A stretch of DNA of 64,000 nucleotides from a virus (IMGVR_UViG_3300000095_000002:1258-65257), one strand, 5' to 3'; shown: positions 4,428-39,095, counted from the stretch's first letter. Numbers and translations are program-made. Notes: generated by a model from the sequence alone, not told the origin.

Positions 4428-4664
4428 ATGAAAATTACTCCTAGTCAATATAAGAAAATTAAAAATACAGTATTATTAGCTGGAGCAGGCGGTCAAGTTG
4501 GTGGTATTGCAGGATACGGTCTTGGAGGTAATGAAGGGAAAGTACCTTTATTAGTCAAAGGCAAACTTAAGAGAGGTAGTAAGAAGGCTCCTACTGTACA
4601 AAGAGCGGCTGCTGTTGGAGGATTAGTTACTGGTGCAGGAATAGGACTGTTACGTAAGAAGTAA
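4428..4664 (+). CDS. Small basic Gly/Ala-rich protein (candidate internal virion protein)
   Basis: LLAGAGGQVGGIAGYGLGG and AAAVGGLVTGAGIGLLRKK, K/R-rich, directly upstream of the protease. Confidence 0.7.
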   Translation: MKITPSQYKKIKNTVLLAGAGGQVGGIAGYGLGGNEGKVPLLVKGKLKRGSKKAPTVQRAAAVGGLVTGAGIGLLRKK

Positions 4665-4667
4665 AAA

Positions 4668-5642
4668 ATGACAATTATACATTTTAATACTATTCCTACT
4701 CCATTAAAAGAAGTAGAGAATGATGACCCGAATTCACTAACTAAAGAAGGTTTAATATTTTACTCTACTGAAGAAGGTAAACCTCATGTAGATAGTAGAA
4801 AAAAAGCTCATGACTTCTCACCTGAAAAGATTTATAAGTTAGTAAATAATACTAATAAGCATTTTGAGATGTCTGAGGTCGGTATTCCAGTTCTTACTGA
4901 ACATCAAAAGAATATTAATAATGTAGTGGGGTTTATTGAATCTCCTGTAGAAGCTAAAGTAATAGACGAATCTTATACTAAAGGAAATCCTAAGTTAAAA
5001 CATTTACTAGGAAGAGTAGGAGTATTCGTTAAAGATGTAGTTATAAAAACTCCTGAAATTATTGATAGGATGAAGAGAGGTTTAGCTAAGACTGTATCGG
5101 CAGGAATTGATTTAGACTCTTTTTCTATTAAAGAACTTTCTCTTGTTGCTCTACCTGCTATACCTAATGCTACACTTTATAGTTATCATGGAAATAAATC
5201 ATCTCCTAATATGAAAAAAATAAAGAATAAGAATCTTTTGGTTGCTAAAGGTATTACTAATGAAAGTAATTACGCTTTATCTCTAGAAGAAGCTCTTAAT
5301 GAATCACAAAGTATAGAAGAACAAAGAGAGGAAGCTATGAAAATATTTACAGCTTTTCTCAAAGTAGTGGAAGATGCAAATGAGATAGGTGAAGAAGAAA
5401 TGGCTTCTATGGGAATCCAAGACCCTTCAGAACTTATTCAATCTGCTGTTGATGATTTAGGAATGCGATTAACAGAAATGTTCTTATCTGCTCCTGAACC
5501 GGAAGCTCCAACTACTCCGATACAAAAACCTGTAACTACTAGACCTCCAATAGGTAAAGCTAGAACTTATGGTTTTTCACCCGAGTTAATTGCTTTTAGC
5601 AACGCTTCTAAGCAAGTTCAATTTAGTAAATATAAAAAATGA
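4668..5642 (+). CDS. Prohead maturation protease (Mu gpI/HK97-like fold)
   Basis: PVLTEH...GFIE...TVSAGID...ELSLVALPAIP motifs, and position ahead of the scaffold and capsid genes. Confidence 0.75.
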   Translation: MTIIHFNTIPTPLKEVENDDPNSLTKEGLIFYSTEEGKPHVDSRKKAHDFSPEKIYKLVNNTNKHFEMSEVGIPVLTEHQKNINNVVGFIESPVEAKVIDESYTKGNPKLKHLLGRVGVFVKDVVIKTPEIIDRMKRGLAKTVSAGIDLDSFSIKELSLVALPAIPNATLYSYHGNKSSPNMKKIKNKNLLVAKGITNESNYALSLEEALNESQSIEEQREEAMKIFTAFLKVVEDANEIGEEEMASMGIQDPSELIQSAVDDLGMRLTEMFLSAPEPEAPTTPIQKPVTTRPPIGKARTYGFSPELIAFSNASKQVQFSKYKK

Positions 5643-5914
5643 GAAACGTAACAAACTCAGCTCAAGTTAGTAGTCCGGGAGGTGCATTAGCAGTTCAAAA
5701 ATCTTCTGCGTTACGAGCTACTAGAATTCCTAAGAAACTTCCTAAAGGTAAAGCTGGATTGGCTCTTGCTGGTTTAGCTGCTGCTGGTGGTATTGGAATG
5801 GGGATTGCACGAAATCGCAAACCTAAAACTTTAGAAGCCCGTATTAAGAGAGCAGTTAATAAAAATCCTCAATTAAGACGAGCTACTTCTATGGCAACAT
5901 CAATGTTTAAATAA
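5639..5914 (+). CDS. Small basic Gly/Ala-rich protein, paralog A
   Basis: RIPKKLPKGKAGLALAGLAAAGGIG, nearly identical to the next gene. Confidence 0.75.
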   Translation: MRNVTNSAQVSSPGGALAVQKSSALRATRIPKKLPKGKAGLALAGLAAAGGIGMGIARNRKPKTLEARIKRAVNKNPQLRRATSMATSMFK

Positions 5915-5932
5915 TAAACAAAATATAAAAAT

Positions 5933-6238
5933 ATGAAACGAAATAATTTTTCTGATTACGCGACAAATGCTGTATTACAAAAAGGTGGAGGTTTAGCTCT
6001 TAGAGGTACTTCTGCTCTTAAACGTATTCCTAAGAAAGGTGGTAAAGCAGGTTTAGCATTGGCGGGATTAGCTGCTGCTGGTGGTCTAGGTGTTGCAGGT
6101 GTTAAAGCATTAAAAGATCGTAAAGCCTCTAAAACTGTTGGAGGTAGAGTTAAGAAAGCTCAAAATCAAGTAGCAAGTAAGATTAATAGTAGTGCAGTTG
6201 CTAAGAAGATGGGTGTCAAAGTTCCTAGGATGAAGTAA
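5933..6238 (+). CDS. Small basic Gly/Ala-rich protein, paralog B
   Basis: RIPKKGGKAGLALAGLAAAGGLG. Confidence 0.75.
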   Translation: MKRNNFSDYATNAVLQKGGGLALRGTSALKRIPKKGGKAGLALAGLAAAGGLGVAGVKALKDRKASKTVGGRVKKAQNQVASKINSSAVAKKMGVKVPRMK

Positions 6239-7278
6239 TGACTACAGCAAAACAAAGACAAGAATGTTTCCAGCTTTATAACGAAATCACTGAAGGACTA
6301 GAACTTGCTTATGAAAATCAAGAGATAAATGAAGCAGAGTTTAGTAAATATAAAATTAAAACGTTAGCTGAACTAGAAGAGTCCTTGGCAGATTTAACTC
6401 AACTAAAAGATACAGAATTAATAGAATATAGCAATATGAATACAAATTACGCAAACTTTAATATGCAGTGCTATTTTGTACCTGCATTACTAGAACAAAT
6501 TGAAAATGACTATGAAACATTGGAAGATGGTCTAATTGATATCCAAAATGTCACTGGTTTTGATGATGAAGATATTGAAGGTTTACTTACTGGTGAACTT
6601 GTCCCGACTCCGCAATGTGTAGACATCTTGAATGAACTCTTTTATGAGACTTCTACTGATAATAACAATGCTTTAGGTTTACAAGTTTTAGCAGCTATTG
6701 ATCGTGGAGATTTAGAAGAATCTGATTTAGAAGAAGGTCTTCAAGCTTATTATGACTCTCAAGAAGATGAAGAAGAGTTAGACGACGAAGATGAAGAAGA
6801 TGATGAAGTAGAAGATAGTGATTCTGACGAAGATGAAAACGAAGAAGTCACTCAGGACGATGCTGTCTATTCCTATATTGATCCTCGATTACAAGAGTTA
6901 GAATCTAAGATTGCTAATTTTGAACTTAACTCAGAACTTAAAAATCGTCTTAATGATGTAGCCGAATTCGCTCGTCAAGGGTTAGAAGACCGTTGGTTAT
7001 CTCGTGCTAAATATGACTTTCTGTTAGGTTCATTTGATAGAGAAGAAGATAGAGTTGCAGCGTTTTCTCAAGCAGCCGAAGAAGATAACGTAGATCTTGC
7101 TACTCGTTTATATGCAGTTCTCTTTGCTCTTGAAGCTGATGAAGCTTGTGGCGAACGAGTCACTTTCTCTTCTTATATTAGTGAACCTCAAACTGCTGCT
7201 AAAAGAGATGATGATGAATTAGCCCTTCTACAAATTAAGAAGATGGTAGAAAATCGTCAGTTGTTTAATAAAAATTAA
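6238..7278 (+). CDS. Acidic capsid scaffolding-like protein
   Basis: Very D/E-rich helical protein located between the protease and the capsid genes. Confidence 0.6.
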   Translation: MTTAKQRQECFQLYNEITEGLELAYENQEINEAEFSKYKIKTLAELEESLADLTQLKDTELIEYSNMNTNYANFNMQCYFVPALLEQIENDYETLEDGLIDIQNVTGFDDEDIEGLLTGELVPTPQCVDILNELFYETSTDNNNALGLQVLAAIDRGDLEESDLEEGLQAYYDSQEDEEELDDEDEEDDEVEDSDSDEDENEEVTQDDAVYSYIDPRLQELESKIANFELNSELKNRLNDVAEFARQGLEDRWLSRAKYDFLLGSFDREEDRVAAFSQAAEEDNVDLATRLYAVLFALEADEACGERVTFSSYISEPQTAAKRDDDELALLQIKKMVENRQLFNKN

Positions 7279-7292
7279 TAGGTAAATAAATA

Positions 7293-8129
7293 ATGTTTGT
7301 AAGATACGGATCAACAGATTCAGAAAAAGCTATTATTGCCTATCCTCGTAATATTAGGGTTCCTTACCACGTTTATATGACTGGTAAACATATCTCACCT
7401 AATAAAGAAGGTAGACGTGCATTAGTAGAAGGTCATTTTGTTTCTAAGAAAGATGGTGTTCATAGATTCCTTCCTCGTTCTAGGGTAACTACTACTCCCA
7501 GCGGTAATCGATTTAAAGTTAAAAACCCTTATGTATTTGTACCTGGAGACACTCTTTATATCATTCAGCCAGTAGCAGTATTACCTGTGTCTGGTGTAGG
7601 TGAAGCTGGTATTACCATCAATAAAAATAGAACGTTTAAGTATACTCCGGTTGGTGCAGCTAATACTACTGAAGCAGCTAGTATGATTGCTTCTTATTTT
7701 AATAGTCAACCTGATATTGCAGAATTGTTAGAACTAATTCCTTCTGGAGCTAATATCTCTTTCTATTCTCCAATTAGTCAACCTCTTGTAACTTTTACTC
7801 CTAGCGGTACTCTTGGCACTACTGAAACTACTACTGCTGTAAATACTACTCCTATCGGTACTATCCAAGCTATTGATATTGAGACTGAAGAATTTATCTT
7901 TGCTTCTAATGTCACTGCTACTTTACCTATAAATGCTGTAGTAGGTGTTCCTCAAGATGAAGTGTTAGGTATTTTTACTCACTCAGTTGATTATACTGCT
8001 GGTGGTATTACTTCTCAGCATATTGGAGTAATTGATGAAGCTAAAGTTTATAAGTTAGCATTGCCTCACTATGATAATTCACTTACTTATGAATGTCCTC
8101 GTCTTCATGTTAGAGAAGTTTGGTCTTAG
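7293..8129 (+). CDS. Head decoration/capsid stabilising protein (putative)
   Basis: Beta-rich protein immediately upstream of a gpE-type capsid gene, i.e. the lambda gpD position. Confidence 0.55.
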   Translation: MFVRYGSTDSEKAIIAYPRNIRVPYHVYMTGKHISPNKEGRRALVEGHFVSKKDGVHRFLPRSRVTTTPSGNRFKVKNPYVFVPGDTLYIIQPVAVLPVSGVGEAGITINKNRTFKYTPVGAANTTEAASMIASYFNSQPDIAELLELIPSGANISFYSPISQPLVTFTPSGTLGTTETTTAVNTTPIGTIQAIDIETEEFIFASNVTATLPINAVVGVPQDEVLGIFTHSVDYTAGGITSQHIGVIDEAKVYKLALPHYDNSLTYECPRLHVREVWS

Positions 8130-8167
8130 TAATAGAAAGAATAGATAATATATAAAAATTAATAAAT

Positions 8168-9334
8168 ATGTCACACGTTGCTACATTTTTCAATGAGCGG
8201 TTTATCTCCAAGCAAGTAATGGCTATGGTAGATGAAACTGAACAGAATTTAATTAAAAGAAGTAAGTTAATTGACCCGTATTTCCCTACTCAAATGTTTG
8301 ATAGTAGAGATTTTGTAGGTCTATTGACTAAACGAGTTGCTCCTGCTGCTTCGATTGTTGCGTATGGCGCTGAAATTCCATTAGTAAACTTTGGTGGAAT
8401 TGAACGTATGGCAGCTACATTATTCAAGTTGGGTACTTCACGTCTCTATGATGAAGAAACTCAATGGAAAATGATTGAAGCTCAAAATATGGCAATTGCT
8501 AAAGGTATTAGAGTTCAACGAGTTTATAACCCTGACGGAACAGTTACTCCTGGGGCAGATGCAGACTTGGCACGAGCTTTATTTGGAGTAGTTGAAGATT
8601 TACTTAAAGGTATTACTGACCGAATGGATCACATGAAATGGCAAGTAGCTTCTACTGGTGCTATTGATATGAAAGATCCTAAGACTGGTGCATTAGTACA
8701 ACTTGATTTCAAAAAAGAAGGTGTTAATTATAATCACTTCCCAGCTCCTTTGACTCAGACTGGTAATACTGTTACTCCTACTCTAAATAAATGGACTGAT
8801 CATGAAAATGCTCGTGGTCTTGAAAATCTTAGTGATGCAGTAGAAACTTATTATGATACTAATGGTTATGCCCCAGATAAAATTGTAATGAGTCGTAAGT
8901 GTTGGAGAGACTTCTTACATCAGAAGAGTACAAGAGATGCTGCTCGTCAACTAACTACTACTGAATTAGGTTTAGTATCTGCTGATATGGGTAAGAAACT
9001 ATTAGAAGCTCGTGATATTCCTGAAGTAGTTACATTTGAAGAAAAATATCAAGAACAATTACCAGATGGCTCTATTGTAGATGTTAACTTCTTGAATAAC
9101 AATCGAATTGTGTTCTTGAAGAATAACATGGGAATCAGTGCTATCGGCCCAACTATTGAGTCTGTTAAAGAGGTAGTTGGTGGTGGAGATACTAAGATTG
9201 AACCTAAATCTGGTATTTATGTCAGTACTTATGAAGAAAATAAACATCCTGTACATGACGTATCAATGGCAACTGCTACATTTGTACCTATTGTAATGAA
9301 TCCTAAACAACTATTCTCTTGGCAGGTACGATAA
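8168..9334 (+). CDS. Major capsid protein (Phage_cap_E, lambda gpE-like)
   Basis: YFP...APAASIVAYGAEIP...ITDRMDHMKWQVASTGAI...LDF...W...APDKIVMS...FLNNNRIVF, followed by a terminator after the next gene. Confidence 0.9.
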   Translation: MSHVATFFNERFISKQVMAMVDETEQNLIKRSKLIDPYFPTQMFDSRDFVGLLTKRVAPAASIVAYGAEIPLVNFGGIERMAATLFKLGTSRLYDEETQWKMIEAQNMAIAKGIRVQRVYNPDGTVTPGADADLARALFGVVEDLLKGITDRMDHMKWQVASTGAIDMKDPKTGALVQLDFKKEGVNYNHFPAPLTQTGNTVTPTLNKWTDHENARGLENLSDAVETYYDTNGYAPDKIVMSRKCWRDFLHQKSTRDAARQLTTTELGLVSADMGKKLLEARDIPEVVTFEEKYQEQLPDGSIVDVNFLNNNRIVFLKNNMGISAIGPTIESVKEVVGGGDTKIEPKSGIYVSTYEENKHPVHDVSMATATFVPIVMNPKQLFSWQVR

Positions 9335-9795
9335 TGAAGAAGTACACTTTACTAAATAATATTATTACTAAAGATGGAAATATACTTTTTGCTAGGACTA
9401 CTCCTTATATGGAAGGTGAGATTCCTAAAGAGTTTATCAATCCACTAAATGTAATAGTTATAGAAGATAATAGTCAAGCGGTTGTATATAAGCAAACCTC
9501 TATAGATAATACTGTTAATCATTTAAATCCTCCAGATAATACAACTAATTTAGCTCCTAAGTTTTATGATCCAACTAAATTGACTGTTGTTCAAAAAGTA
9601 GATATTAATACCTTAACTTTAGATCAACTTAAAGAGCTTAAAGGTATTGGAGAGAAAACAGCAGTGCAATTAGTATCTAGCAGACCTTATAAAGATTTAG
9701 CTGAATTAACTACTAAAGTTAAACCTCCTACTGGAAAAACTTGGGAAGACTTTAATTTTATGTTTGGTGAGCCTTCTACTATTTCTGTAGTTTAA
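9334..9795 (+). CDS. Helix-hairpin-helix (ComEA/PsbU-like) DNA-binding protein
   Basis: VDINTLTLDQLKELKGIGEKTAVQLVSSRPYKDLAEL. The start overlaps the capsid gene stop (TAATG). Confidence 0.75.
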   Translation: MKKYTLLNNIITKDGNILFARTTPYMEGEIPKEFINPLNVIVIEDNSQAVVYKQTSIDNTVNHLNPPDNTTNLAPKFYDPTKLTVVQKVDINTLTLDQLKELKGIGEKTAVQLVSSRPYKDLAELTTKVKPPTGKTWEDFNFMFGEPSTISVV

Positions 9796-9821
9796 TAATC
9801 TCTAGTACATCTAATTAATCC

Positions 9822-9859
9822 TAAGTATAGTTTGCTAGAGAGCTATACTTATTTTTTTT
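9822..9859 (+). terminator. Rho-independent terminator
   Basis: TAAGTATAGTT-loop-AGCTATACTTA stem followed by T8. Confidence 0.75.
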
Positions 9860-9866
9860 ATCTTAT

Positions 9867-10292
9867 ATGCTCATTCAATCAAAGATTACAACTCTTCAAG
9901 TAGTAAGAGATTGTACTAAAGAAAAACCTCAGATATATTTGAGAAATTCTAAACATTCTATAAGAGATACTATTCCTGTCCTATTAGATATAACGTCTAA
10001 GGAACCTATCAAATTAAACAATATAGGATTAACATTTAAGTTATATCATCAATTGAGTGGATTACTACTTAAACAATATGATACTACTAGCTTTGTGTTT
10101 CCTATAGTAGAAATGAGTTCTATAAGAGCTATTCTCTATATAAATGGAGTAGATATTAAGACCTTCTATCAAAATAAGACTTTAGAGTTTCCTAATAAAC
10201 TTCAGAGTATTAGCTACGCTTTAGATATATCCGTTAAGACTACTCAAAATATTTCAAATTATACAGACTCAGGAGAATTTTATGTCTATTAA
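9867..10292 (+). CDS. Hypothetical virion-associated protein (BppU/Ig-like beta fold possible)
   Basis: Clean ORF ending YALDI...DSGEFYVY, a C-terminus resembling those of 10282 and 17357. Confidence 0.5.
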   Translation: MLIQSKITTLQVVRDCTKEKPQIYLRNSKHSIRDTIPVLLDITSKEPIKLNNIGLTFKLYHQLSGLLLKQYDTTSFVFPIVEMSSIRAILYINGVDIKTFYQNKTLEFPNKLQSISYALDISVKTTQNISNYTDSGEFYVY

Positions 10293-10683
10293 AACTACTA
10301 CTTATAGAGAATGGAGAGATAATCGTTTAGCAGGTTCAATAGTTCCAAGATCAGATGATTTACCTTTAGGAGTTAGTTTAGAATCTATGGATAATCCTTC
10401 TATCTTAGGAGCTGGAGTATCTATTAATTTCACAGTATTTACTAATACTTCTACTACTAACTTTGGTGTTGGCAATTATGGTACTTATAGTGGGTTATCT
10501 CCAATAGTTATAGAACCTAACAAAATCATCTTTAAAGGTTTAGTAGAAAAAGAAGTTATTCAATCGAAGTTAGACCCAAAGCTAGATTCTTCTATTTATT
10601 TCGTTACTAAAGCAGTGTTTCCAGATACAGCAGAAGTAACTATAGATGAAGGATATTTCACGTCCAAAGTTACATTGATATAA
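10282..10683 (+). CDS. Hypothetical virion-associated protein
   Basis: Overlaps the previous gene, is beta-rich and ends TIDEGYF. Confidence 0.5.
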   Translation: MSIKTTTYREWRDNRLAGSIVPRSDDLPLGVSLESMDNPSILGAGVSINFTVFTNTSTTNFGVGNYGTYSGLSPIVIEPNKIIFKGLVEKEVIQSKLDPKLDSSIYFVTKAVFPDTAEVTIDEGYFTSKVTLI

Positions 10684-10693
10684 GAAAAAAAAT

Positions 10694-11449
10694 ATGAAAC
10701 TTAAGATTATTAATAGAACTCCATTAAAAAGTAGAGCTATACCATTTATTGAGTTACAACCACGTTATCTCTATTGGTTAGACACTAATACTGAGATTGA
10801 TGTAGAAATTATACGAGAGAAAGATGCTCATTACGAAGTTAAATTATCTACTAACTTTCCTGATTCTCCTGTAGGTATTAGAACTTGGTTTATCTATAAG
10901 GAACACGTAGAAGTAATAGAGGATAAAAAGAAATCTACTAAGAATATACTTAAAACTGATTATTACTATCAACTAGATAATAACTATCAACCTTACACAT
11001 CTTGTTTCTTAACTTGTGTAGCAATGCTCTTATCTTTCTATAAGGTGAAGGTAACGCCAGATGAACTATATAATAAATGTCTAGATTTAGGATACGATAG
11101 ATTTTCTCATCAGGATATTGAAGCGATTATCAAAAGTTATGGTGTTAACTATTATGCTACTACTTCTGGTACTTTTGAAGAATTAAAAAACACTCTAAAA
11201 ACTGCTCCTGTAATTATTGGTACTTATCTTACTGAAGCTAGTCACATTGTTTTAGCAGTAGGTTATGATAATTCTGCGTATGACGATAGAGGAGCTTTTG
11301 TAATTAACGATCCTAATGGAGAGTTTACTCATAACGGCTATATCCATACTCCTACAGCAGGAAAAGAGACTTTATACTCCTACGCTCTTATGGCTCAGGT
11401 AGCTGCACCAGAAGGAGATGGAAATTATTGGTTACATTTACCGGAATAA
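10694..11449 (+). CDS. Endolysin, peptidase C39-like
   Basis: YYYQLDN...SCFLTCVAMLL...HIVLAVGYD...INDPNG. The N-terminal HYEVKL...TWFIYKEHVE domain is typical of cyanobacterial cell-wall proteins. Confidence 0.8.
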   Translation: MKLKIINRTPLKSRAIPFIELQPRYLYWLDTNTEIDVEIIREKDAHYEVKLSTNFPDSPVGIRTWFIYKEHVEVIEDKKKSTKNILKTDYYYQLDNNYQPYTSCFLTCVAMLLSFYKVKVTPDELYNKCLDLGYDRFSHQDIEAIIKSYGVNYYATTSGTFEELKNTLKTAPVIIGTYLTEASHIVLAVGYDNSAYDDRGAFVINDPNGEFTHNGYIHTPTAGKETLYSYALMAQVAAPEGDGNYWLHLPE

Positions 11450-11453
11450 AACA

Positions 11454-11738
11454 ATGAAACATAAAATGAAACGTTCTCTATATTTCACTAAAACATTTCT
11501 ATTTTCTCTTTTACTTTATCTTTCAGTTATTTATACTCCATTAATTAACTTTGCTTATGAACATAAATTAAGTAGAGGAGATTTAGAAGCAATAGTTATT
11601 GGTACTTTTAGTTTCTTTGGAGTTAGCAATGGAAGATTAAGAGTTAACGAAGATATTAGAAGAAGTGCTGAAACTGGAGAACCTATAGGATTACTTACAA
11701 CTAAAGTAGTTCCTAGTAAGAGAAAAGAAGAGGTGTAA
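11454..11738 (+). CDS. Holin (2 TM, putative)
   Basis: Two hydrophobic segments, a basic C-terminus, and a position right after the endolysin. Likely starts are 11454 and 11466. Confidence 0.6.
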   Translation: MKHKMKRSLYFTKTFLFSLLLYLSVIYTPLINFAYEHKLSRGDLEAIVIGTFSFFGVSNGRLRVNEDIRRSAETGEPIGLLTTKVVPSKRKEEV

Positions 11739-11742
11739 GTTA

Positions 11743-13287
11743 ATGGTTATATTTAGTCTATTACTTGAAAAAGTTGAAGATGATTATTACTACCGATATA
11801 TTAGCGACAACGTTACTTATTATATACCTTCATACAAAACTGATAGACTAAATAAACCTATTAGCGAATTTGAGTCTTTTGAAGATTATACTAATATTCA
11901 TGAGTTTTTAGATAAAGTCTATATTGATGGTGAAAATAGAGAAGATTATATAGTTAGTGAAGCTAAAGATACTAAAGAAATATCTATAACTATTATTGGA
12001 TATAAATATGAAAACTTTATTGTTCTTATAGGAAGTCATAAATCTGATGTTCTATTAGAAGAGACTTTATTTAAAGAAGATTATATATTTCTAATTAGAT
12101 GGAGAGATAGTAAAGAAGATTTAATAGATGATATATCAGATAATGTAGTTAATCTTTTAGGATATAGCAAACGAGAAATACTATCTAAACCTTATATAGA
12201 ACTTATACATCCTGACGATATTGATTTATTTAAACAGGAATTAGCAGAACATCTTAGAGAAAGTAGTCCTTCTTTTTATCAAAGATATAGATTACTAGCT
12301 AAATCTGGAAAAGCTATTACTATTCTCGACCATTCATGTCAGATCTTTAAAGGAGATAGTAAAAAGACGATTGGTTATCTGAGAGATATTACTGTAGAAA
12401 CTCAAATGTCTACTAGATTAACTGAGTTAGTACACTTAGATGAAGAAGATTTTAATAGTAGTCTCTTAATTAAGATTGAATGGGATTCTGAATATAGAAT
12501 AGTACGTTGGAATACTGAAGCTCAAGATTTAATTGGTTGGGGTCACGAAATCCTTGGTAAAAGTATTAGAGAACTCAATTTATTTTCTGATGCAGATTCT
12601 ATTAAAATGCAAGGTCAATTCAAACGATTATTTGCAAAAGAAGTAGATAACGTAATTAGTAGTTTTAGAATTCAAAAGAAAGAAGGTGGATTTATAGATA
12701 CTAAATGGTCTAATCGTTTAATTACTAGAGAAGGTAAATTAAGAATTGTATCTTCCGTCATTGATAAAAGTCAAGAAACTCTATTAACTACTCGCTTAGA
12801 TGAAATGGAAGGTCGTTCTGATTTACTTCTAAAAACTTTAGAAAATACACATCTATCTAATGATGTCTTTACTAAATTAATGCACAACCCCCTTACTGGA
12901 AATCCGGAAGGACTTATTAAAGCTGAGATTATCATCAGAAAGTTAGAAGAAGAAATTACTAGATTGAATAATACCATCTTCTACAATAACGATAATAATC
13001 TAATGAGTGATATTGCTTTCCTAAAAAATGAAGAACGTGTATTAAAAGATAAAATTAATAAAGTAGAAGAAAGTAATAAGAAGTTGTCTGAACAGTTAGA
13101 TGATTTATTAAACGTAAATATATTAACTCTATTTAAGAATTTAGATTTTAAGAAAGTTGTAGCAATAATTATATCTGGTTATTTAATATTTGGTCAGTTT
13201 GTACCAGCTCTATATCCAAGATTAGTTAAACCTCTATTTCAAGAATATAACAGAGAAATGAAAGAGTTAGAAAGTGGTAAAAAATAA
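11743..13287 (+). CDS. PAS-PAS / coiled-coil / C-terminal TM protein in the lysis cassette
   Basis: PAS1 is LLGYS...IHPDD...YRLLAKSGK...GYLRDIT. PAS2 is IEWDSEYRIVRWNTEAQDLIGW...KKEGGFIDTKW. TM is VVAIIISGYLIFGQFVPAL. No kinase or cyclase domain is present. Confidence 0.8.
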   Translation: MVIFSLLLEKVEDDYYYRYISDNVTYYIPSYKTDRLNKPISEFESFEDYTNIHEFLDKVYIDGENREDYIVSEAKDTKEISITIIGYKYENFIVLIGSHKSDVLLEETLFKEDYIFLIRWRDSKEDLIDDISDNVVNLLGYSKREILSKPYIELIHPDDIDLFKQELAEHLRESSPSFYQRYRLLAKSGKAITILDHSCQIFKGDSKKTIGYLRDITVETQMSTRLTELVHLDEEDFNSSLLIKIEWDSEYRIVRWNTEAQDLIGWGHEILGKSIRELNLFSDADSIKMQGQFKRLFAKEVDNVISSFRIQKKEGGFIDTKWSNRLITREGKLRIVSSVIDKSQETLLTTRLDEMEGRSDLLLKTLENTHLSNDVFTKLMHNPLTGNPEGLIKAEIIIRKLEEEITRLNNTIFYNNDNNLMSDIAFLKNEERVLKDKINKVEESNKKLSEQLDDLLNVNILTLFKNLDFKKVVAIIISGYLIFGQFVPALYPRLVKPLFQEYNREMKELESGKK

Positions 13288-13700
13288 TGTGGCGACCATT
13301 TGATAGTCCAAAGAAAAGACGTGAAAGATTTATAAAAAAGAATAGTCCGTATCTAGTTCCTTTAGCTGTAGGAGCATTAGCAGCCGGAGCAGATGAGAAC
13401 GCTACTGGTAGACAAAGACTTAAAAGAGGATTGGTCACTGGTGGTCAAACTTTTGCTGCAATGAAAACTGCTGGAGTATTCGCTAATAGAAAAAGTAAAG
13501 AAAACTATTATAAAGGTACTATTCTACCAACTATTCAACAAGCTAAAGGAATAGCTAATAGTGGAGTAAACGTCAGTAGAGAACTGAGAGGTAGAGAAGT
13601 GTGGAATCTCAAAAAATCAGGTTTATTAAAAAAAGCTAAAAATATTAAAAAAGAAGCGCAATTACTTCTCCCTTCTTCTAGTAGACCTAAGATATTTTAA
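13287..13700 (+). CDS. Basic Gly/Ala-rich protein (same family)
   Basis: YLVPLAVGALAAGA flanked by K/R-rich segments. Confidence 0.65.
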   Translation: MWRPFDSPKKRRERFIKKNSPYLVPLAVGALAAGADENATGRQRLKRGLVTGGQTFAAMKTAGVFANRKSKENYYKGTILPTIQQAKGIANSGVNVSRELRGREVWNLKKSGLLKKAKNIKKEAQLLLPSSSRPKIF

Positions 13701-13702
13701 TT

Positions 13703-14296
13703 ATGTACAAATATATAACGATTGAAAAAATTCAAAGAAGTTTAGGTAGGAGAGCTAATGTATTTAATAGTGATTTGATTCCTAGTGACAATGTATCTGT
13801 TATATCTAGCAATATAGATGTCGAATTAATACATGATTTGATAGTTAGAAATGAAACTCTTATAGATACGTATTTCGGAATGATTTATGTTCTTCCTATA
13901 GATAGTAGAGATATTCCACTTATCGAACCTATATTAGAAGGTTTTGTTATTAATGATTTAATGATGAGAGTTTATGACCAAGGAATGATTGCTTCTCTAG
14001 GAGGAGATGGAGGCTTTGGTTCTACTATATATCAAAAAGCTAAGGAATTACTTAAAGGATATTTTATTGGTACGGGCATTTATATACCAGGAATATCAGC
14101 TCCAGAAGATAGTGGATATGGAAAAGAAGCCTATCCTTTACTTCTACCTTATACACCTCAATTAACTAATAGAAGAGATAATATTACTAGGAACTATACA
14201 GTAATAGGAACGTATCAAAATAATAGAAGAAATATGGAATTTGACTTTAGAGAAAATAAGTCTAGAGTATTTGGTATAGAAGAAAGATATTGGTAG
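13703..14296 (+). CDS. Head-tail adaptor, Mu gp36/DUF1320-like
   Basis: YITIEKI...LIDTYFGMIYVLPI...YQKAKELLK. Confidence 0.65.
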   Translation: MYKYITIEKIQRSLGRRANVFNSDLIPSDNVSVISSNIDVELIHDLIVRNETLIDTYFGMIYVLPIDSRDIPLIEPILEGFVINDLMMRVYDQGMIASLGGDGGFGSTIYQKAKELLKGYFIGTGIYIPGISAPEDSGYGKEAYPLLLPYTPQLTNRRDNITRNYTVIGTYQNNRRNMEFDFRENKSRVFGIEERYW

Positions 14297-14308
14297 TAAA
14301 TAAAAATA

Positions 14309-14803
14309 ATGAGAAAGAGAACTACTTTTATAAACACTACTAACTCGTCTTACTTATTCGGTAGACCTAAGAAACCTTCTAGACTTAAAAGTGCTGCTAT
14401 AGGAGCTGGAGTTGGGGCTGCTGCTGGTTATAATGCTGGAGGAATAGCTGGTGGGGTAATGGGTGGTTTACGTGGAGCTACTGATAGTTTTGTACGTAAA
14501 AATGGATATAACTCTCTCCTTACTAGAGCTAAACGATATGCTTCTACCTCTTTCGCTGGTAAAGTCTCTAATGATGCTAAGACTATTGGTACTCTCTCAG
14601 GCGCTACAGGTGGATTGACTGGAGCTGTCAGGGGAGGTATTCGTGGACTTAAAGGTGGTTGGAAAGGTGCTTTAGGTGGAGCAATAAATCAAGGAGCTAA
14701 AAGTGCATGGAAAGCTGGTAAGAGAGGAGCTGCTATTGGCGCAGGTATTGGTGGACTTAGAGGATTAAAGAGAAAGAAAAACTATTTACTTCCTATCTCT
14801 TAA
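14309..14803 (+). CDS. Basic glycine-zipper protein (same family)
   Basis: SSYLFGRPKK followed by repeated GxxxG segments (AAIGAGVGAAAG, GAAIGAGIGG). Confidence 0.7.
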   Translation: MRKRTTFINTTNSSYLFGRPKKPSRLKSAAIGAGVGAAAGYNAGGIAGGVMGGLRGATDSFVRKNGYNSLLTRAKRYASTSFAGKVSNDAKTIGTLSGATGGLTGAVRGGIRGLKGGWKGALGGAINQGAKSAWKAGKRGAAIGAGIGGLRGLKRKKNYLLPIS

Positions 14804-14839
14804 AATTAGCAATATAGTTTAATTCTCTTCACTCTTAAA

Positions 14840-15166
14840 ATGACTAAACCTAAATGTAGATATCGACAAAGATTTAATACTTGGAAAAGAAGTAGAGAAG
14901 CTTCTGAAGTTAGTAGAAGTCTTATAAGAAAAGCTCTTTATCTATGTCCAATCTGTAGAAATCCATTATCTCTAGGAGAAGGTCACTTATTCCACATCAT
15001 ACCTATTAAACTACTATCTCAATATAATTGTATGAGTTTAGTATCTAGCGAATATAATCTTCTATATTCTTGTAAGAAGTGTAATTTAAAGCAGAGAAGT
15101 GAGATATATACTGAATGTCTAGAAGATAATCTCTTAACTCTATGGAATAAACTAAAAAATAAATGA
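14840..15166 (+). CDS. HNH endonuclease
   Basis: CPIC...HLFHIIP...NLLYSCKKCN. Confidence 0.8.
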   Translation: MTKPKCRYRQRFNTWKRSREASEVSRSLIRKALYLCPICRNPLSLGEGHLFHIIPIKLLSQYNCMSLVSSEYNLLYSCKKCNLKQRSEIYTECLEDNLLTLWNKLKNK

Positions 15167-15169
15167 ACA

Positions 15170-15679
15170 ATGAATAACGCACTAAAAGTAGACAAAATAT
15201 TTAATTGGCAATCTAATTATCAAAACTCTATAAGAAATAATAATTGTCACATACAAATATATTCTCCTCTATATGATTTTGATATAACTACAAAACGTAT
15301 AAAAGAAAATCGTAGATATCTAAATCCTAAAGAATATGAATTAGTCATAGCTAGTGATTTTGATGATCATAGTAATGGCTCTATTACTACTGAGATTTAT
15401 TCTCTAGCATCTAAGGTTATATTAGAAAACACTTTATTAGTTCCACATACTATCTGGATTAATAAATATGAACAACATCATGAAGGTCTATTCAATTTCG
15501 ACTATAAGATTTCTTTAGTAGAGATAAACGTTAATTATATAGGAAATGAGAGTTTTACTTATTATCCTATATGGCAAGATGAATTAGACTACTTAATCAC
15601 TGGAGATCCTATATATTTTAGAGAAGTTTGCTCTAGTGGATGGAATCAATTATATGAAAGATGGAAGAGTAAATTGTGA
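15170..15679 (+). CDS. Hypothetical protein
   Basis: Clean ORF with the pattern CHIQIY...VIASDFDDHSNGSIT. Confidence 0.55.
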   Translation: MNNALKVDKIFNWQSNYQNSIRNNNCHIQIYSPLYDFDITTKRIKENRRYLNPKEYELVIASDFDDHSNGSITTEIYSLASKVILENTLLVPHTIWINKYEQHHEGLFNFDYKISLVEINVNYIGNESFTYYPIWQDELDYLITGDPIYFREVCSSGWNQLYERWKSKL

Positions 15680-16440
15680 GTGATATAAAGTTTGTAGGAC
15701 AAGTTTCTTCTACTTATCTATTTGGTAGAGGTAGAGGAAAAGATAAGCAAAAAAGAAAACGAAGAATTATTAACGCTCTTAAAGGTGCCGGACTTGGAGC
15801 ATTAGGCGGTGCAGTAGGAATAAGTCTAGCTATGAAAGGTGATAGTAGACTATTACGTCATAAGATTATTGATGGTGCAGCGGGTCTAGGAGCATCTGCA
15901 TTAGGTGGAGCAGTATTAGGTAATGCAGTTTTCGATAAAAAATCTGAAAGTAAAAGTCCACTAGGTAGATATAAAGCTTATCAAGAGAAACAAAATAAAA
16001 AAAAGTATAAATCTAGTATTGGTACTCAAAGTTTAGCAGGAGTTGGTGCGGTAATAGGTGCTAAAGCAGGAAGAATAGGTATGCTTACAGAAGCTGCTAA
16101 TCATATACCTATAGGATTAAAAATAGATAAAAACATATCTCAAGAAAAACAACGATTTAATAAAGAAGGAGCCAGAAGTAGATTTGGTAAGATAGTGCAT
16201 GACGCAAAAGTAGGTGCTGCTAGTACGTCTGGAACTTTAGCTTTAAACAATGCAGTTCAACAAGTTCTAAAAGTTAAAAAAACTGGAAATATTAAAAGAG
16301 ATGCTCTAAGTGCAGTTGGTAGAGGTGTCGCAGGTGCTATCTATGGTGGAGCTAAAGGTGTGGTTATAGGTGGTAGTCTTGGCTCTGGTGTAGGTTTAGC
16401 CAGAGGATTCGTTCAACCAAATAAAAAGAAAAGTAAATAA
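15676..16440 (+). CDS. Basic glycine-zipper protein (same family)
   Basis: SSTYLFGRGRGKDKQKRKRR followed by several GxxxG helices. GTG start. Confidence 0.7.
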   Translation: MSDIKFVGQVSSTYLFGRGRGKDKQKRKRRIINALKGAGLGALGGAVGISLAMKGDSRLLRHKIIDGAAGLGASALGGAVLGNAVFDKKSESKSPLGRYKAYQEKQNKKKYKSSIGTQSLAGVGAVIGAKAGRIGMLTEAANHIPIGLKIDKNISQEKQRFNKEGARSRFGKIVHDAKVGAASTSGTLALNNAVQQVLKVKKTGNIKRDALSAVGRGVAGAIYGGAKGVVIGGSLGSGVGLARGFVQPNKKKSK

Positions 16441-16518
16441 CAATTCTTAAATCGAATAATAGAAATTAGTTCTCATTAGATAATTTAGTATAAAAGTAAA
16501 GTTAAAAATTAAAATAAT

Positions 16519-17346
16519 ATGGCAGATAATAAAAGTCCCGCTCAAGCTACAAATTTACTGAACTTCTTAAAAGGTTTAGTCGTTACATCTCCGGTTAATA
16601 ATAATGTTTTCATTGGTCTATCTACTACTCTTCCAACTGCGGAAGGTGGTAATTTCACTGAACCTGCTGGATCTACGGGTTATGCAAAAGTTCAATATGC
16701 AACTGGTGTATCTAACTTCTCAGAACCTAATAAACGTTCATGTTTCAATCAGCAAGAAGTGAAGTTCAATGTTGCTCTTACTCAATATCCTACTGTAGTT
16801 GCTGTAGGTATATTCGATGAAACTAGCGATACCGTTCCCCTCTACTTTGGTTCTATTGATTTAGGTCGAAGTATTGAAACTGGTGATAGAGTATATTTTC
16901 CACCTCAAGGAATCATTATTCATGAAGTTCAACCTACGTTTACTAAATCTGATTATTTAGCAAATGCACAATTGAAACTCTTACGTAATGAAACTTTTGA
17001 AACTCCATCTGAGATTTATTTAGCTCTTGGTACAATGACTCCTACTATGACTGGAGATATTGGTGAACTTACTAATACCAACTCACCTGGTTATGTCCGA
17101 ATTCCTATTCCTTGTAATGCAGCTAATTGGCAAGTTACTGGACGAACTGCGACTAATCTTATGGAATTAGTATTTCCTATGGCAACCGCACCTTGGGAAA
17201 ATATTAAATCGTTTGCTTTACATAGAAGTGCTACTGGCAATACCGATATGCTCTACTGTGGAAGTTTTGGAGAGAACAACACTAAAGTTATTTACCTCAA
17301 AGATAAATTACGAATTCCAGTAGGCGCAATTACAGTTTCAGAATAA
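16519..17346 (+). CDS. Virion structural protein made of two tandem copies of a minor-tail-type domain
   Basis: Both halves read [FY][IL][GA]L.T..PT..G...E......GY......N...+.F..A......[AS][VF][GA]+.....LY.G. Confidence 0.7.
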   Translation: MADNKSPAQATNLLNFLKGLVVTSPVNNNVFIGLSTTLPTAEGGNFTEPAGSTGYAKVQYATGVSNFSEPNKRSCFNQQEVKFNVALTQYPTVVAVGIFDETSDTVPLYFGSIDLGRSIETGDRVYFPPQGIIIHEVQPTFTKSDYLANAQLKLLRNETFETPSEIYLALGTMTPTMTGDIGELTNTNSPGYVRIPIPCNAANWQVTGRTATNLMELVFPMATAPWENIKSFALHRSATGNTDMLYCGSFGENNTKVIYLKDKLRIPVGAITVSE

Positions 17347-17356
17347 GAGGTATATT

Positions 17357-18259: not shown

Positions 18260-18260
18260 A

Positions 18261-21744: not shown

Positions 21745-21803
21745 CAGCTCCAATTCCTAGTAGTGGAAACGGAGATATTGATCAATTAGCTTTCTTACTA
21801 GAG

Positions 21804-22056: not shown

Positions 22057-22596
22057 ATGAAAAACAGAATAGAATTTGCTAGTAGATGGAAGAGAGAACT
22101 TTATCCTGATAGTATTGCTGAAGGAAAAGAGGCTGCCTATGATATAAGTCGAAGATTAAAAAGAGGGAGGTCTTTAGAAAGTGCAAAACAAAGCAGTTGG
22201 CTTGAAATAGATAGCGGAAAAAATAGTTCTAAAAACGCTAAAAAATCACTAGAAGATCGAGTAAAAAACTCTAAAAATAAAAGTAGTTTTACTAAAAAAC
22301 CACTGAAAGAATCATTGGCAGATAAGAAAAGAAAACTATTAAATGACATAAATAAAGGACTAGATGAAGCTAAAGAAGATATAAAAAATAAACCTCCTAG
22401 ACCAAAACCAAATGTTAAATATAAACCTTTACCAAAAAAACCTAGTAGAGTTAGTCAATTAGGTAAGTCACTACTTAAGAATAAGGGTAAGTTAGCATTA
22501 TTAGCAGGAGCAGGAACTCTTGGAGCTATAGGGTATAAACTCTATAGAAAAGCTAGGTCGGACAAAGGTAAGAAACGAAGATTTTATAATAAATAA
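22057..22596 (+). CDS. Basic protein with a Gly/Ala hydrophobic helix (same family)
   Basis: KNKGKLALLAGAGTLGAIGYKLYRKARSDKGKKR. Confidence 0.7.
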   Translation: MKNRIEFASRWKRELYPDSIAEGKEAAYDISRRLKRGRSLESAKQSSWLEIDSGKNSSKNAKKSLEDRVKNSKNKSSFTKKPLKESLADKKRKLLNDINKGLDEAKEDIKNKPPRPKPNVKYKPLPKKPSRVSQLGKSLLKNKGKLALLAGAGTLGAIGYKLYRKARSDKGKKRRFYNK

Positions 22597-32255: not shown

Positions 32256-32281
32256 ATGAGAAAGAGGAAATACACTAAATA

Positions 32282-32875: not shown

Positions 32876-32876
32876 A

Positions 32877-33634: not shown

Positions 33635-33643
33635 ATCTTATAT

Positions 33644-34000: not shown

Positions 34001-34049
34001 ACTCTTAATATCTAATATAGAATAAGCATAATAACTTCTTTTCTTCCAT

Positions 34050-36764: not shown

Positions 36765-36769
36765 CTAAA

Positions 36770-37174: not shown

Positions 37175-37191
37175 TTAATCTCTCTTTTTAT

Positions 37192-37698
37192 TTAATAGCA
37201 AAACATAGCTGAATATTCTTCATTCCATTCATTTTTTAATATTCGTCGTTCTCCTCTCATATATAGAATAAATTCAGTAGCTAAGTGAAAATTATCTACT
37301 ATTTCATCAAAATTACTTAATACACTTATTCCATACGTAGGATTTGAGTAGAGTTCTATATACTGGTGAGAAAGATAAGTAGCATCTGGATTGCTCATCT
37401 TAGTAGGTATCTTTTTGGGTATTTTAAACTCTAATCTAAATACTCTTGTTTCATCTCTATGATAATTATCATTAGCCCAAGTAGTATCTCTATCTTTGTG
37501 ATCAATTAAAGTAATCTTCTTATCTTTAAGTTCATTACGAATTCTATCTGCTTCTACATAATTCTTAGCTTTTTTAGCATCATTTCTTTGTTTAACTAAC
37601 GCTTCTACATCTTCCTTAGTTAAGAAAGAGTTTAATACATTACTAAATTTAGGTAGATAAAGACGAACTTTCTTAAACTCTAGTAATTCAACTTCCAT
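37192..37698 (-). CDS. Protein containing a cysteinyl-tRNA synthetase C-terminal (anticodon-binding) helical domain
   Basis: VEALVKQRNDAKKAKNYVEADRIRNELKDKKITLIDHKDRDTTW. Confidence 0.75.
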   Translation of the reverse strand: MEVELLEFKKVRLYLPKFSNVLNSFLTKEDVEALVKQRNDAKKAKNYVEADRIRNELKDKKITLIDHKDRDTTWANDNYHRDETRVFRLEFKIPKKIPTKMSNPDATYLSHQYIELYSNPTYGISVLSNFDEIVDNFHLATEFILYMRGERRILKNEWNEEYSAMFCY

Positions 37699-37701
37699 GA
37701 T

Positions 37702-38265
37702 TTAAAGCAATCCATTAGCTTTCATCAATAATCTCATGAGATATTGAGCTTTTCTATCAGTAATACCAGCTCGATTAAGTCCTGCTGTTACTTCTGTAGG
37801 TGCGCCAAGAAATGTATCATAGATATCTTTTCCATCAGTAGCAAAATCCTTCGCTTTCTTAGTAATGTCTTGGATTTCAGGTTCCATTACTTTACTAACT
37901 CGTTTAGCTAACTCTCTTCTAGATAAAGTTCTATAATCTACTCCTTCTCCTTTAGTCATTAGCTCATCGAAGTTATCATGAACTCTTTTAAGTCTCTCAC
38001 TATAACTCTTAGGATTATTAGGTTTAAAATTACCAGATCTAACTTCATCTAGTAATCTCTTTATAATTTTAGGTTTAACTACACGAGCATAAATAGCAGA
38101 TTCCGTACCTTTAGCTAATCCTCTACCAGTAGCTTTAATCGCTCCCCTTCTACCTGATATAGCTTGAAGTGCTTTTTCCCACTCTTCTTGTCTAACCTGG
38201 ATACCTAATTTCTCTGCTTCAGGATCTCTAGCTAATTTATTTATTTGTGCAATAGCTAATCCCAT
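37702..38265 (-). CDS. Basic helical protein, probably the C-terminal part of a frameshift fusion with 38391..39095
   Basis: The frame is open upstream to 38409, through the A9 run. Confidence 0.65.
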   Translation of the reverse strand: MGLAIAQINKLARDPEAEKLGIQVRQEEWEKALQAISGRRGAIKATGRGLAKGTESAIYARVVKPKIIKRLLDEVRSGNFKPNNPKSYSERLKRVHDNFDELMTKGEGVDYRTLSRRELAKRVSKVMEPEIQDITKKAKDFATDGKDIYDTFLGAPTEVTAGLNRAGITDRKAQYLMRLLMKANGLL

Positions 38266-38390
38266 AGGACTTTTACGTTCAGCAATTGGAGATATAGCTA
38301 AGTCTTTTAATTTATCTTTTTCACTTACTACTGCTTTAACTTTGTCTATTCCTAATATTCCTCTTCTAGATGCGTTAGGTACAATATCAT

Positions 38391-39095
38391 CTACTTTTTT
38401 TTTACGTTTTCATCATTAATAAGCTTCTCTCTAATTAATCTATCTCTAACTTTACGTTTAGCTTTAGTAATTACTTTATCGATAGGAGCTTTATTTGATG
38501 TGTCTAATATAGTTTTGAGAGATGTTCTTTCTGGAGGTCTTCCTAATCCTGTACCTTTCTTAGGTCGAGCAAGAGCTTTCTCCATTTGAACAATAGCTTT
38601 CATCTCTATAGGAAGAGAGTTATAAGCTTCTTGAGTTCTCTCCATATTCTTAGCAGAAACTACCATAGAACTTGCTAACTTTCTACCCCGAGCTTTTGTC
38701 TTTGATAATTTCGTACCTCGAATACCTGACCTACTAGCAATTGGAGTAGTCCAAGGATCTGGTAACTGATCGTATTTCTGGATAATAGTAGATTTTGAAG
38801 GCACTGAACCATTTGTAATTTTTATTGTTACTCCTTTAGGATATTTAGGTGTGGAAGATTTAGCAGAATTTAATATATTCTTGTTAAGAGAAGGTTTACT
38901 AATTCCTTTTTTCTTCAGTATTATTGCTGCTCCAATACCTAATGCTCCTATAGTTCCTACCCCTAAAGCTATATTTCTTTTAGTATTATCTTTCTTTCTT
39001 TCTTTTCTGAAGAAATCTTTTACAATAGATACTTTAAAGCCTTTCTTAGTCTTATTTAATCTGTTGTGTCCTTTTACTTTATCTTTATTAAACAT
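38391..39095 (-). CDS. Basic protein with a Gly/Ala hydrophobic helix (same family)
   Basis: VKGHNR...VKDFFRK basic motif followed by IALGVGTIGALGIGAAIILKKK. Confidence 0.7.
   Translation of the reverse strand: MFNKDKVKGHNRLNKTKKGFKVSIVKDFFRKERKKDNTKRNIALGVGTIGALGIGAAIILKKKGISKPSLNKNILNSAKSSTPKYPKGVTIKITNGSVPSKSTIIQKYDQLPDPWTTPIASRSGIRGTKLSKTKARGRKLASSMVVSAKNMERTQEAYNSLPIEMKAIVQMEKALARPKKGTGLGRPPERTSLKTILDTSNKAPIDKVITKAKRKVRDRLIREKLINDENVKKK
38394..38403 (-). other. A9G run containing the -1 slippery heptamer A_AAA_AAG directly before a TAG stop
   Basis: GTA AAA AAA AAG TAG; the -1 frame continues to 37702. Confidence 0.6.

Follow-up and report, generated by a model that had tools for sequence, protein, structure and literature searches.

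A tagged family of basic glycine-zipper proteins beside the head-completion gene of one siphovirus lineage

We analysed a 64,000-nucleotide stretch of DNA (the window) that makes up nearly all of the 65,257-base IMG/VR virus record IMGVR_UViG_3300000095_000002, and in which a preliminary description had pointed out eight genes for lysine/arginine-rich, glycine-zipper proteins dispersed among virion genes. Three of these, 13287, 14309 and 15676 (genes are named here by their first coordinate in the window), constitute one new, rare and previously undescribed family of basic glycine-zipper proteins that bear an N-terminal tag. The concrete new result is that this tagged family is fixed beside the head-completion gene of one siphovirus lineage. 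The tag may load the family proteins into the virus particle, and we give the reading that the tagged proteins are associated with the particle and in contact with DNA a probability of about 0.4. The family members and the head-completion gene are:

15676..16440, + strand: canonical member, 254 amino acids, tag at residues 1-30; no Pfam or PHROG match
14309..14803, + strand: conserved core member, 164 amino acids, with the tag variant SSYLFGRPKKPSR and the strongest glycine-zipper periodicity
13287..13700, + strand: diverged member, 137 amino acids, recognised by BLASTP to tag-bearing proteins
13703..14296, + strand: Mu J-like head-completion gene, recognised by homology to Pam2 ORF23

When aligned, the tags follow the consensus M-x(1-3)-I-x-F-[IV]-G-x3-S-x-Y-x-R-G-K-D-K-x-K-R-K-x-R, after which a glycine zipper begins. 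Each unit is made up of a strand-like I-x-F-x-G, an S-x-Y, a basic hook (GRGKDKxKRKxR, or GRPKKP in the 14309 type), then one or more weakly hydrophobic glycine-zipper helices, a central block (KEGARxRLGKIxNDAK) and finally a C-terminal glycine zipper with RGFxQPNKKKK at its end. The N-terminal motif is common to 14309 and 15676, in which the S[ST]YLFGR motif attributed earlier to two members reads SSYLFGR and STYLFGR, respectively. The RxDKxKR-like motifs reported with it are present as RGKDKQKRKRR in 15676 and RSDKGKKRR in 22057. The diverged member 13287 matched two tag-bearing proteins, L009:7584-7883 (BLASTP E 6e-5) and P0035 (E 1e-4); the I.F.G part of its tag has been lost, and the basic cluster and an SPYLVP/Gly-Ala segment are kept.

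Behind its tag, 15676 carries glycine-zipper helices, the central block KEGARSRFGKIVHDAK and a C-terminal glycine zipper followed by RGFVQPNKKKSK, and it scores E 1.1e-17 and E 7.6e-64 against the A3 and A4 hidden Markov models (HMMs) of the family. Many extra copies were found by scanning related contigs for basic, glycine-rich open reading frames (ORFs). In a full-length alignment of 17 members the central block reads D-K-x-I-x-K-E-K-x-R-[YF]-x-K-E-G-A-R-x-R-L-G-K-I-x-N-D-A-K-x-G-A-K and the C-terminal block G-x-K-G-A-x-I-G-G-x2-G-x-G-V-G-x2-R-G-F-x-Q-P-N-K-K-K, with a poly-lysine tail. The proteins range from 100 to 414 amino acids and include tandem fusions of two or three units with tag-like segments (e.g. 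IIDFAFGIPAKPKKK and ITEFAFNLPSSQPKKK) at the unit joints; L003:12361 (308 amino acids), L005:16155 (414 amino acids) and P0030 are such fused forms.

The family is rare. The A3 tag profile, which covers 43 positions of the aligned N-termini, matched 29 of 1,835,955,588 cluster representatives at E<=1e-3, and all 29 matches begin at residues 1-4. A protein search with 15676 returned nine proteins including the query, one of them automatically named 'SlyB', while eight family clusters that were looked up had 1-4 members each and no informative name. There was no tblastn match to 15676 in 50,697 cultured phage records, no relative in a scan of 185,579 species genomes with the family pattern, and no megablast match between positions 4000-16500 and cultured phages. 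A look-up of sequencing runs listed no RNA run as a holder and gave only small shares in DNA runs.

In every relative examined, the family copies form a variable array beside the Mu J-like gene. The locus runs from a PAS protein gene through the 13287 type, the 13703 type, an array of 1-4 genes with the 14309 type last, an HNH gene, the 15170 type and a Gp80-like fibre gene to Neck1, and this order is kept from the window to relatives with only 55% capsid-protein identity. The 13287 type is conserved 5' of the Mu J-like gene in L003, L005, L010, L020, L021 and L024. In six related records searched whole, family matches occurred only in one stretch of a few kilobases each, in the head-completion/neck block; in the 151-kb record G001 all 6 lie within 57995-63939. 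Each record has between 2 and 7 profile matches, and tandem genes as well as fused units appear to increase the dosage. The head-completion assignment comes from the 13703 protein, which is 27.7% identical over 137 amino acids (E 2.6e-8) to Pam2 ORF23, annotated 'Gene product J' in its record, and which had no Pfam or PHROG match. Table S2 of PMC9382816 gives ORF23 an HHpred value of 0.89 to Mu J and lists it as detected in virions by mass spectrometry.

The 14309 type keeps 83-85% identity to its orthologues even where the capsid protein of the two phages is down to 55%. It is as conserved as Neck1 and far above both the capsid protein (55%) and the Mu J-like protein (69%); compared with distant relatives, its synonymous divergence (dS) is 0.85 and its ratio of nonsynonymous to synonymous divergence (dN/dS) is 0.15. 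More generally, purifying selection was seen in all five of the basic genes tested against orthologues in related contigs, with dN/dS of 0.11-0.33 for 4428, 0.12 for 5639, 0.30 for 5933, 0.09-0.35 for 13287 and 0.08-0.15 for 14309. The neighboring capsid, protease and 13703 genes gave similar values. Given these ratios (0.08-0.35 overall), 4428, 5639, 5933, 13287 and 14309 are real genes.

The HNH endonuclease-like gene (14840-15166, + strand; weak matches to Pfam HNH and DUF6671, and PHROG 144) lies at the array end in all relatives. As it is fixed there with 70-90% identity, its behaviour is that of a stable component, unlike that of a mobile homing gene.

The other five genes of the original set are:

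4428..4664, + strand: basic glycine-zipper protein of a separate type, 78 amino acids, conserved beside the protease gene
5639..5914, + strand: basic Gly/Ala protein, 91 amino acids, between the protease and scaffold genes; paralogue of 5933
5933..6238, + strand: basic Gly/Ala protein, 101 amino acids; tandem paralogue of 5639
22057..22596, + strand: basic protein, 179 amino acids, between the tail chaperone and tape measure genes
38391..39095, - strand: basic single-pass membrane protein, 234 amino acids, in an opposite-strand cluster among tail genes

All eight ORFs are present at the coordinates given for them, and they are as strongly basic as had been claimed, with isoelectric points of 10.4-12.0, lysine plus arginine contents of 18-29% and net charges of +14 to +41. 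Every sequence quoted for them was found: GKAGLALAGLAAAGG in 5639 and 5933, GKLALLAGAGTLGAIG in 22057, IALGVGTIGALGIGAA in 38391 and GAGLGALGGAVG in 15676. Tight coupling to neighboring genes had also been reported, and the junctions that we checked are indeed overlaps or gaps of 1-18 nucleotides (4664/4668, 5642/5639, 6238/6238, 13287/13287, 13700/13703, 15679/15676, 22055/22057 and 22596/22599). With the exception of 38391, all of the eight are co-oriented with particle genes and tightly coupled to them.

Glycine zippers and Gly/Ala hydrophobic helices had been ascribed to the whole set, and here the claim stands for some members only. Judged against 2000 shuffles, GxxxG was in excess in 4428, 14309 and 15676 (three of the eight) and not in the other five; nor was the excess significant in a 1112-residue minor-head-like protein that had been described alongside them as 'gpF-like'. 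Pooled glycine-glycine spacings peak at i+4 (43 against 22.4 expected) and i+8 (41 against 21.6 expected), and the periodicity of glycines at i, i+4 and i+8 is significant in the same three proteins. We estimated helix insertion energies (dG) as position-independent sums of Hessa-scale values. A strong transmembrane segment was predicted only in 38391 (dG -0.3), while 5639 and 5933 were borderline (+2.3 and +2.4), the best segments of 15676 scored +4.7 and +5.2, and 4428, 13287, 14309 and 22057 had none under +6. No signal peptides are visible in the basic proteins.

None of the eight has a PHROG match, and Pfam at E<=0.01 yielded a single weak glycine-zipper match, to 14309. The i+4 glycine periodicity is like that of the Pfam glycine zippers PF13441 (YMGG), PF13488 (Omp) and PF13436 (OmpA-like; compare the SlyB/Pcp outer-membrane lipoproteins), which gave weak matches to seven (best E 2.1e-5), five and two of the 17 family members, respectively. 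The Pfam gathering cut-off was not reached by 14309 (18.3 bits against 28.9 for Gly-zipper_YMGG), and 15676 had no match. Unlike these lipoproteins, the family described here has no lipoprotein signal peptide and is phage-encoded, polybasic, tagged and multi-unit.

The observation behind the preliminary description is real but over-unified. A single dispersed family was not borne out: the 4428 type, the 5639 type and the motif family lack profile similarity to one another (hhalign probabilities of 4.4%, 0.1% and 2.9%). Nor does one helix-plus-basic profile extend across the set, as an HMM of the C-terminal module matches 15676 alone when bias correction is applied; without the correction 14309, 4428 and others also score. 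As far as their sequences tell, the eight genuine late genes would fall into four or more unrelated types of protein, which have arrived by convergence at a single design of polybasic tracts plus Gly/Ala-rich helices.

It could be speculated that there is no common system at all, and that eight unrelated small proteins with separate jobs resemble each other through the low-complexity Gly/Ala/Lys composition of an AT-rich genome. The hhalign probabilities between types (0.1-4.4%), the module HMM that reaches other types only with bias correction off, the significant GxxxG excess in just three of eight and the position of 38391 in a separate cluster on the other strand are all consistent with this. 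On the other hand, short modules have been exchanged between positions, because the C-terminal 41 residues of 22057 match the C-terminus of the post-protease basic gene L006:7260-7868 (E 1.5e-7, 55% identity) and in L005:7638 a helix of the 5639 type is combined with an RSDKGRKRK tail. The slots are also interchangeable, since the 4428 type lies 5' of the protease gene in most relatives and 3' of it in L006 and L008, and all members but 38391 share their orientation and close spacing with the particle genes. We consider this explanation unlikely.

The remaining types can be described briefly. 5639 and 5933 are clear tandem paralogues (phmmer E 6.5e-12, 46% identity) with a near-identical 60-base core. 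In L006:5933-7234 and L008:1475-2773 the protease ORF continues for about 110 further residues that are basic and have a high content of Gly, Lys and Arg; in the window this place is taken by separate small basic genes, and the extensions may be a further fused form of the post-protease proteins. 22057 ends in a Gly/Ala helix and then the RSDKGKKRR tail, and no counterpart was found 5' of the tape measure gene in G001, G002 or G003. We rejected the possibility that the tail chaperone is extended into 22057 by frameshifting, since the frame of 22057 does not open before 22027. 38391 is conserved in G001 and G003; it looks like an ordinary single-pass membrane protein and probably does not belong to the same set.

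The source of the window (about 31% G+C, 69% A+T) is an uncultured long-tailed siphovirus that is kin to cyanophages and has a Mu-type head module. Its capsid protein is 99% identical to that of G001, whose 151-kb record has direct terminal repeats, so the full genome is probably about 150 kb. The nearest cultured relatives of the capsid protein are in the Pseudanabaena cyanophages Pam2 and PA-SR01 (30.6% identity), and there are tail proteins in common with siphoviruses of Nodularia, Planktothrix and Aphanizomenon. The other particle genes and features of the window that bear on the basic genes are:

368-748: putative DNA-binding small ORF adjoining a terminase fragment
757-4095, + strand: minor-head-like protein, 1112 amino acids, with weak PHROG matches
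2638..2706, + strand: Gly/Ala helix and basic flank (FIKKLVIAGVGLLGVGTAYYAYHKLIKNK) within the minor-head-like protein
4668..5642, + strand: homologue of the Mu gpI-like prohead protease, by tblastn to PA-SR01 QIW88456 and Pam2 ORF14
6238..7278, + strand: acidic scaffold-like protein with a long Asp/Glu tract, weakly similar to the acidic Pam2 ORF18 (E 1.1e-5)
8168-9334: major capsid protein of the lambda-E/PHROG 29 type
18261-18845: Neck1/tail-completion gene
21268-22055, + strand: tail chaperone genes
22599-32255, + strand: tape measure gene, 3218 amino acids
52674-53969, + strand: Mu-type portal (Portal_Mu E 7.3e-15)

The protease is 30-33% identical to QIW88456, noted in its record as 'Mu-like prophage I protein', and to Pam2 ORF14 (E 9e-24 and 8e-23); a Pfam scan gave no match to it. 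In the minor-head-like protein, residues 380-640 gave weak matches to two families, PHROG 115 'minor head protein' (E 7e-4) and PHROG 4728 'head morphogenesis' (E 1.1e-3). A Pfam scan for the Mu F/SPP1 gp7-like type gave no match.

The preliminary description took the basic proteins to be cargo packaged with the DNA, which would condense it, insert into the host membrane at ejection, or both. This interpretation is plausible. The analysis shows that the genes are real, how the family is built, where the tag lies, and that gene order and sequence are conserved, whereas packaging, ejection, DNA binding, any cleavage and membrane activity are functions that we infer. A virion-associated, DNA-binding and possibly membrane-active set is partly supported, in that several features fit it, and the basic genes are embedded in the block of head, neck and tail genes. 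In the reading that we favour, the tag would dock the proteins onto a component of the head or neck during assembly and might be trimmed at that site, while the basic hooks and tails would rest on the AT-rich DNA. Through their glycine-zipper helices the proteins would form tight bundles, and once ejected these helices could enter the host envelope. The weak hydrophobicity of the helices (dG >= +4.7) together with the lack of a signal peptide suits proteins that are soluble until released. The 5639/5933, 4428 and 22057 types would have analogous functions in the protease-scaffold and chaperone-tape-measure slots, and the acidic scaffold-like protein could pair electrostatically with the basic proteins.

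Packaging is made plausible by analogy with the internal proteins of T4 and with gp6.7 and gp7.3 of T7. The T4 proteins IPI, IPII, IPIII and Alt have only a capsid-targeting sequence in common, according to PMC3012670. As in T4, we find diverse basic proteins (here known as genes) with a short conserved N-terminal sequence, a locus whose content varies between relatives, a particle gene set and a prohead protease gene. An N-terminal sequence shared in this way is present in 14309 and 15676 and absent from 4428, 5639, 5933, 22057 and 38391. Unlike in T4, the tag is different and longer, the bodies of the proteins are related to each other, and the array adjoins the head-completion gene of a siphovirus. 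No homology to IPI-III or Alt was found by PHROG or Pfam at E<=0.01. In T7, PMC11784390 describes gp6.7 as a small core protein and gp7.3 as a scaffold that lies between the adaptor and the nozzle. Like those of the window, these two small proteins are encoded among portal, adaptor and tail genes; they are built into the particle near the adaptor/core and act in ejection, whereas the proteins of the window are known from their genes. T7 gp7.3 is also basic and Gly/Ala-rich. T7 differs in being a podovirus with a single copy of each gene and with no homology found, and we know of no tag on gp6.7 or gp7.3.

A positional parallel is provided by Pam2, in whose virions ORF15 and ORF17 were detected by mass spectrometry (PMC9382816, Table S2). 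Both are basic (K+R 0.17 and 0.16), ORF17 is Gly/Ala-rich (G 0.11, A 0.12), and they occupy the same slot as 5639 and 5933, from the homologous protease (ORF14) to the acidic scaffold-like ORF18. They differ in being much larger (442 and 640 amino acids).

The structure of the tagged proteins gave no further lead. AlphaFold2 modelled 15676 (with 17 relatives) as all-helical with a mean predicted local distance difference test (pLDDT) score of 52.5, only residues ~160-240 being above 60, and a Foldseek search of BFVD with this model returned 0 matches at E<=0.001. The model of the Mu J-like 13703 protein was unusable (pLDDT 33), and a prediction of the complex of Mu J-like protein (A5) and tag (A3), as monomers, gave no support (score 0.00). 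A sequence search of PDB with the family profile found one match at E 0.84, and the best score for 14309 in the ESM Atlas, 0.82, was within noise. Since neither structure prediction nor searches of solved structures produced a fold match, the functional reading rests on anatomy and context.

One alternative that shares the DNA contact is that the proteins are cytoplasmic helpers, left behind when the particle is complete, that coat or condense the AT-rich DNA or neutralise its charge during packaging or head completion. The net charge of +14 to +41, the 69% A+T genome, the location of the genes among packaging and head-completion genes and the GRGKDK/GRPKKP hooks would all suit such a role; the hooks resemble AT-hooks, which we take to have a GRP core flanked by Lys/Arg. 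However, it would leave the glycine-zipper periodicity, the strict N-terminal tag and the variable tandem array unexplained, and the window already has a putative DNA-binding ORF at 368-748. We regard it as quite improbable.

Two genes at 10694-11738 (+ strand) are a likely lysis pair embedded among the head genes. The first encodes a C39-like cysteine peptidase (Peptidase_C39_2 E 5.5e-16; PHROG 10051 'endolysin' E 1e-18) that is 81-92% conserved, and the second (11418-11738, 106 amino acids, one hydrophobic segment with dG +2.1) is the better holin candidate. Next to them, 11743-13287 (+ strand) encodes a 514-residue protein with a PAS domain (PAS_3 E 7.8e-17), a coiled coil and a hydrophobic C-terminal segment, 55-91% identical in all relatives; a sensor-type PAS domain inside a structural block, between the small hydrophobic protein and 13287, is unusual. 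The peptidase was also considered as a leader-peptide protease for the tag. We dropped this idea, as the peptidase matches a PHROG endolysin family best and the tag is without the double-glycine leader pattern.

As 13287 follows this likely lysis cassette, a late role in the envelope or lysis is a serious rival explanation. The proteins would then not be packaged, but would be cationic helical accessories that disrupt the outer membrane or modulate the holin. The C39-like peptidase, the small hydrophobic protein 11418-11738 and the PAS protein, with its C-terminal hydrophobic helix, stand directly 5' of 13287; no spanin was recognised among the ORFs scanned; and cationic lysis proteins are known. 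One of these, phiKT gp28, is presented as a cationic, outer-membrane-disrupting lysis protein in bioRxiv 10.1101/515445. Like the proteins described here it is a cationic phage protein without a transmembrane anchor, and it acts on membranes, for which the window's proteins are only candidates; as far as that source goes, it is a single short peptide of a lysis cassette, unlike the multi-block proteins of 78-414 amino acids in a head/neck/tail block. Moreover, the array follows the Mu J-like gene and not the endolysin, and 100-414 amino acids with three conserved blocks and an exact N-terminal tag exceed the needs of a membrane-disrupting peptide. The helices of the family make poor membrane segments, conservation of the 14309 type equals that of the neck protein, and 2-7 copies per genome would be unusual for lysis genes. 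A holin would be a small protein with a strong transmembrane helix encoded beside the endolysin, and this does not describe the tagged family (best dG +4.7); 38391 alone is hydrophobic enough (dG -0.3) but sits far from the endolysin. Overall, we judge an envelope or lysis role to be a rather unlikely one.

Several points weigh against the association of the tagged proteins with the particle. Most of the Gly/Ala helices are too weakly hydrophobic for classical membrane helices. Few genes of the block are as conserved as the 14309 type, which sets it apart from fast-evolving cargo; the T4 internal proteins are hypervariable, whereas this type is 84% identical where the capsid protein is 55%. 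The fused forms carry tag-like segments internally, so that the signal need not be strictly N-terminal if these fusions stay uncut. The whole records of the cultured PA-SR01 and Nodularia phage kac65v151 contain 0 family matches, and Pam2 gave no tblastn match to the window's small basic proteins at E<=1e-2. The Pam2 evidence is thus positional and not homologous, as there is no sequence similarity and the tagged family is absent from PA-SR01 and kac65v151. In Table S2 of PMC9382816, ORF16, the glycine-richest small protein of the Pam2 slot, is not positive by mass spectrometry. The place of 13287 after the endolysin, the candidate holin and the PAS/transmembrane protein fits a lysis or envelope role as well. 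Finally, of 41 structural-side genes 8 have an aliphatic-x-Phe within the first 12 residues, as do 6 of the 37 remaining genes (Fisher p 0.77), and both figures exceed the 2.5 expected from shuffles; with rates alike in both groups, such a minimal tag is not a specific mark in the window.

Other short sites were seen: NYANF and IANF are conserved in the scaffold protein, I-x-F occurs at both ends of the protease, and E-F-A occurs at unit joints and at the N-termini of Pam2 ORF15 and ORF17. The NYANF, IANF and I-x-F sites are too short to evaluate.

A bolder form of the particle-association reading is a particle-loading code peculiar to this one siphovirus lineage. Here the tag of about 30 residues would dock a variable array of DNA-hook/zipper proteins, amplified in tandem, into the head or neck, fused precursors would be cut into units, and the zippers would join a conduit across the host envelope. 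The proteins would neutralise the AT-rich DNA in the particle and be ejected ahead of it, and the conserved 14309 type would be an invariant structural piece. We put this forward as a speculative and doubtful extension.

For T4, T7, P22 and phiKZ-like phages there are good descriptions of internal and ejected proteins; to our knowledge hardly any exist for long-tailed siphoviruses. A literature search on glycine zippers with bacteriophage virions or ejection proteins found nothing relevant. A defined, searchable tag would give a handle on the non-DNA cargo of siphoviruses and on its addressing to the particle. The T4 capsid-targeting sequence is already used for packaging foreign proteins, and if the present tag loads proteins it would be a useful tool for the same purpose.

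Some further observations concern the surrounding genes. The portal gene is about 48 kb away from the protease, scaffold and capsid genes, with tail genes and opposite-strand metabolic genes between them, and the portal is separated in the same way in Pam2 (ORF50). Between the family array and Neck1, 16519-18259 (+ strand) encodes a Gp80-like fibre protein (PF23140, E 4.8e-35) and then a 300-residue protein with repeated ANIYTD(K/S)SK units; these may be head or neck fibres.

The tail chaperones resemble a G/GT pair, in that a stop-to-stop frame (21648-22055) in the -1 frame overlaps the end of 21268-21744. Just 5' of the chaperone stop, the A-rich run gaaaaaag (21733-21740) would suit a programmed -1 frameshift. 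Scaling the 3218-residue tape measure protein from that of Pam2, which PMC9382816 gives as 1918 amino acids for a tail of ~300 nm, predicts a tail of roughly 500 nm. The opposite-strand cluster at 48911-51972 (- strand) encodes an ATP-grasp (R2K) protein, a rubrerythrin-like protein and a 594-residue family-2 glycosyltransferase with a sulfotransferase-like N-terminus, and 54357-54887 (- strand) is a release-factor-like fragment with weak RF-1 and PCRF matches.

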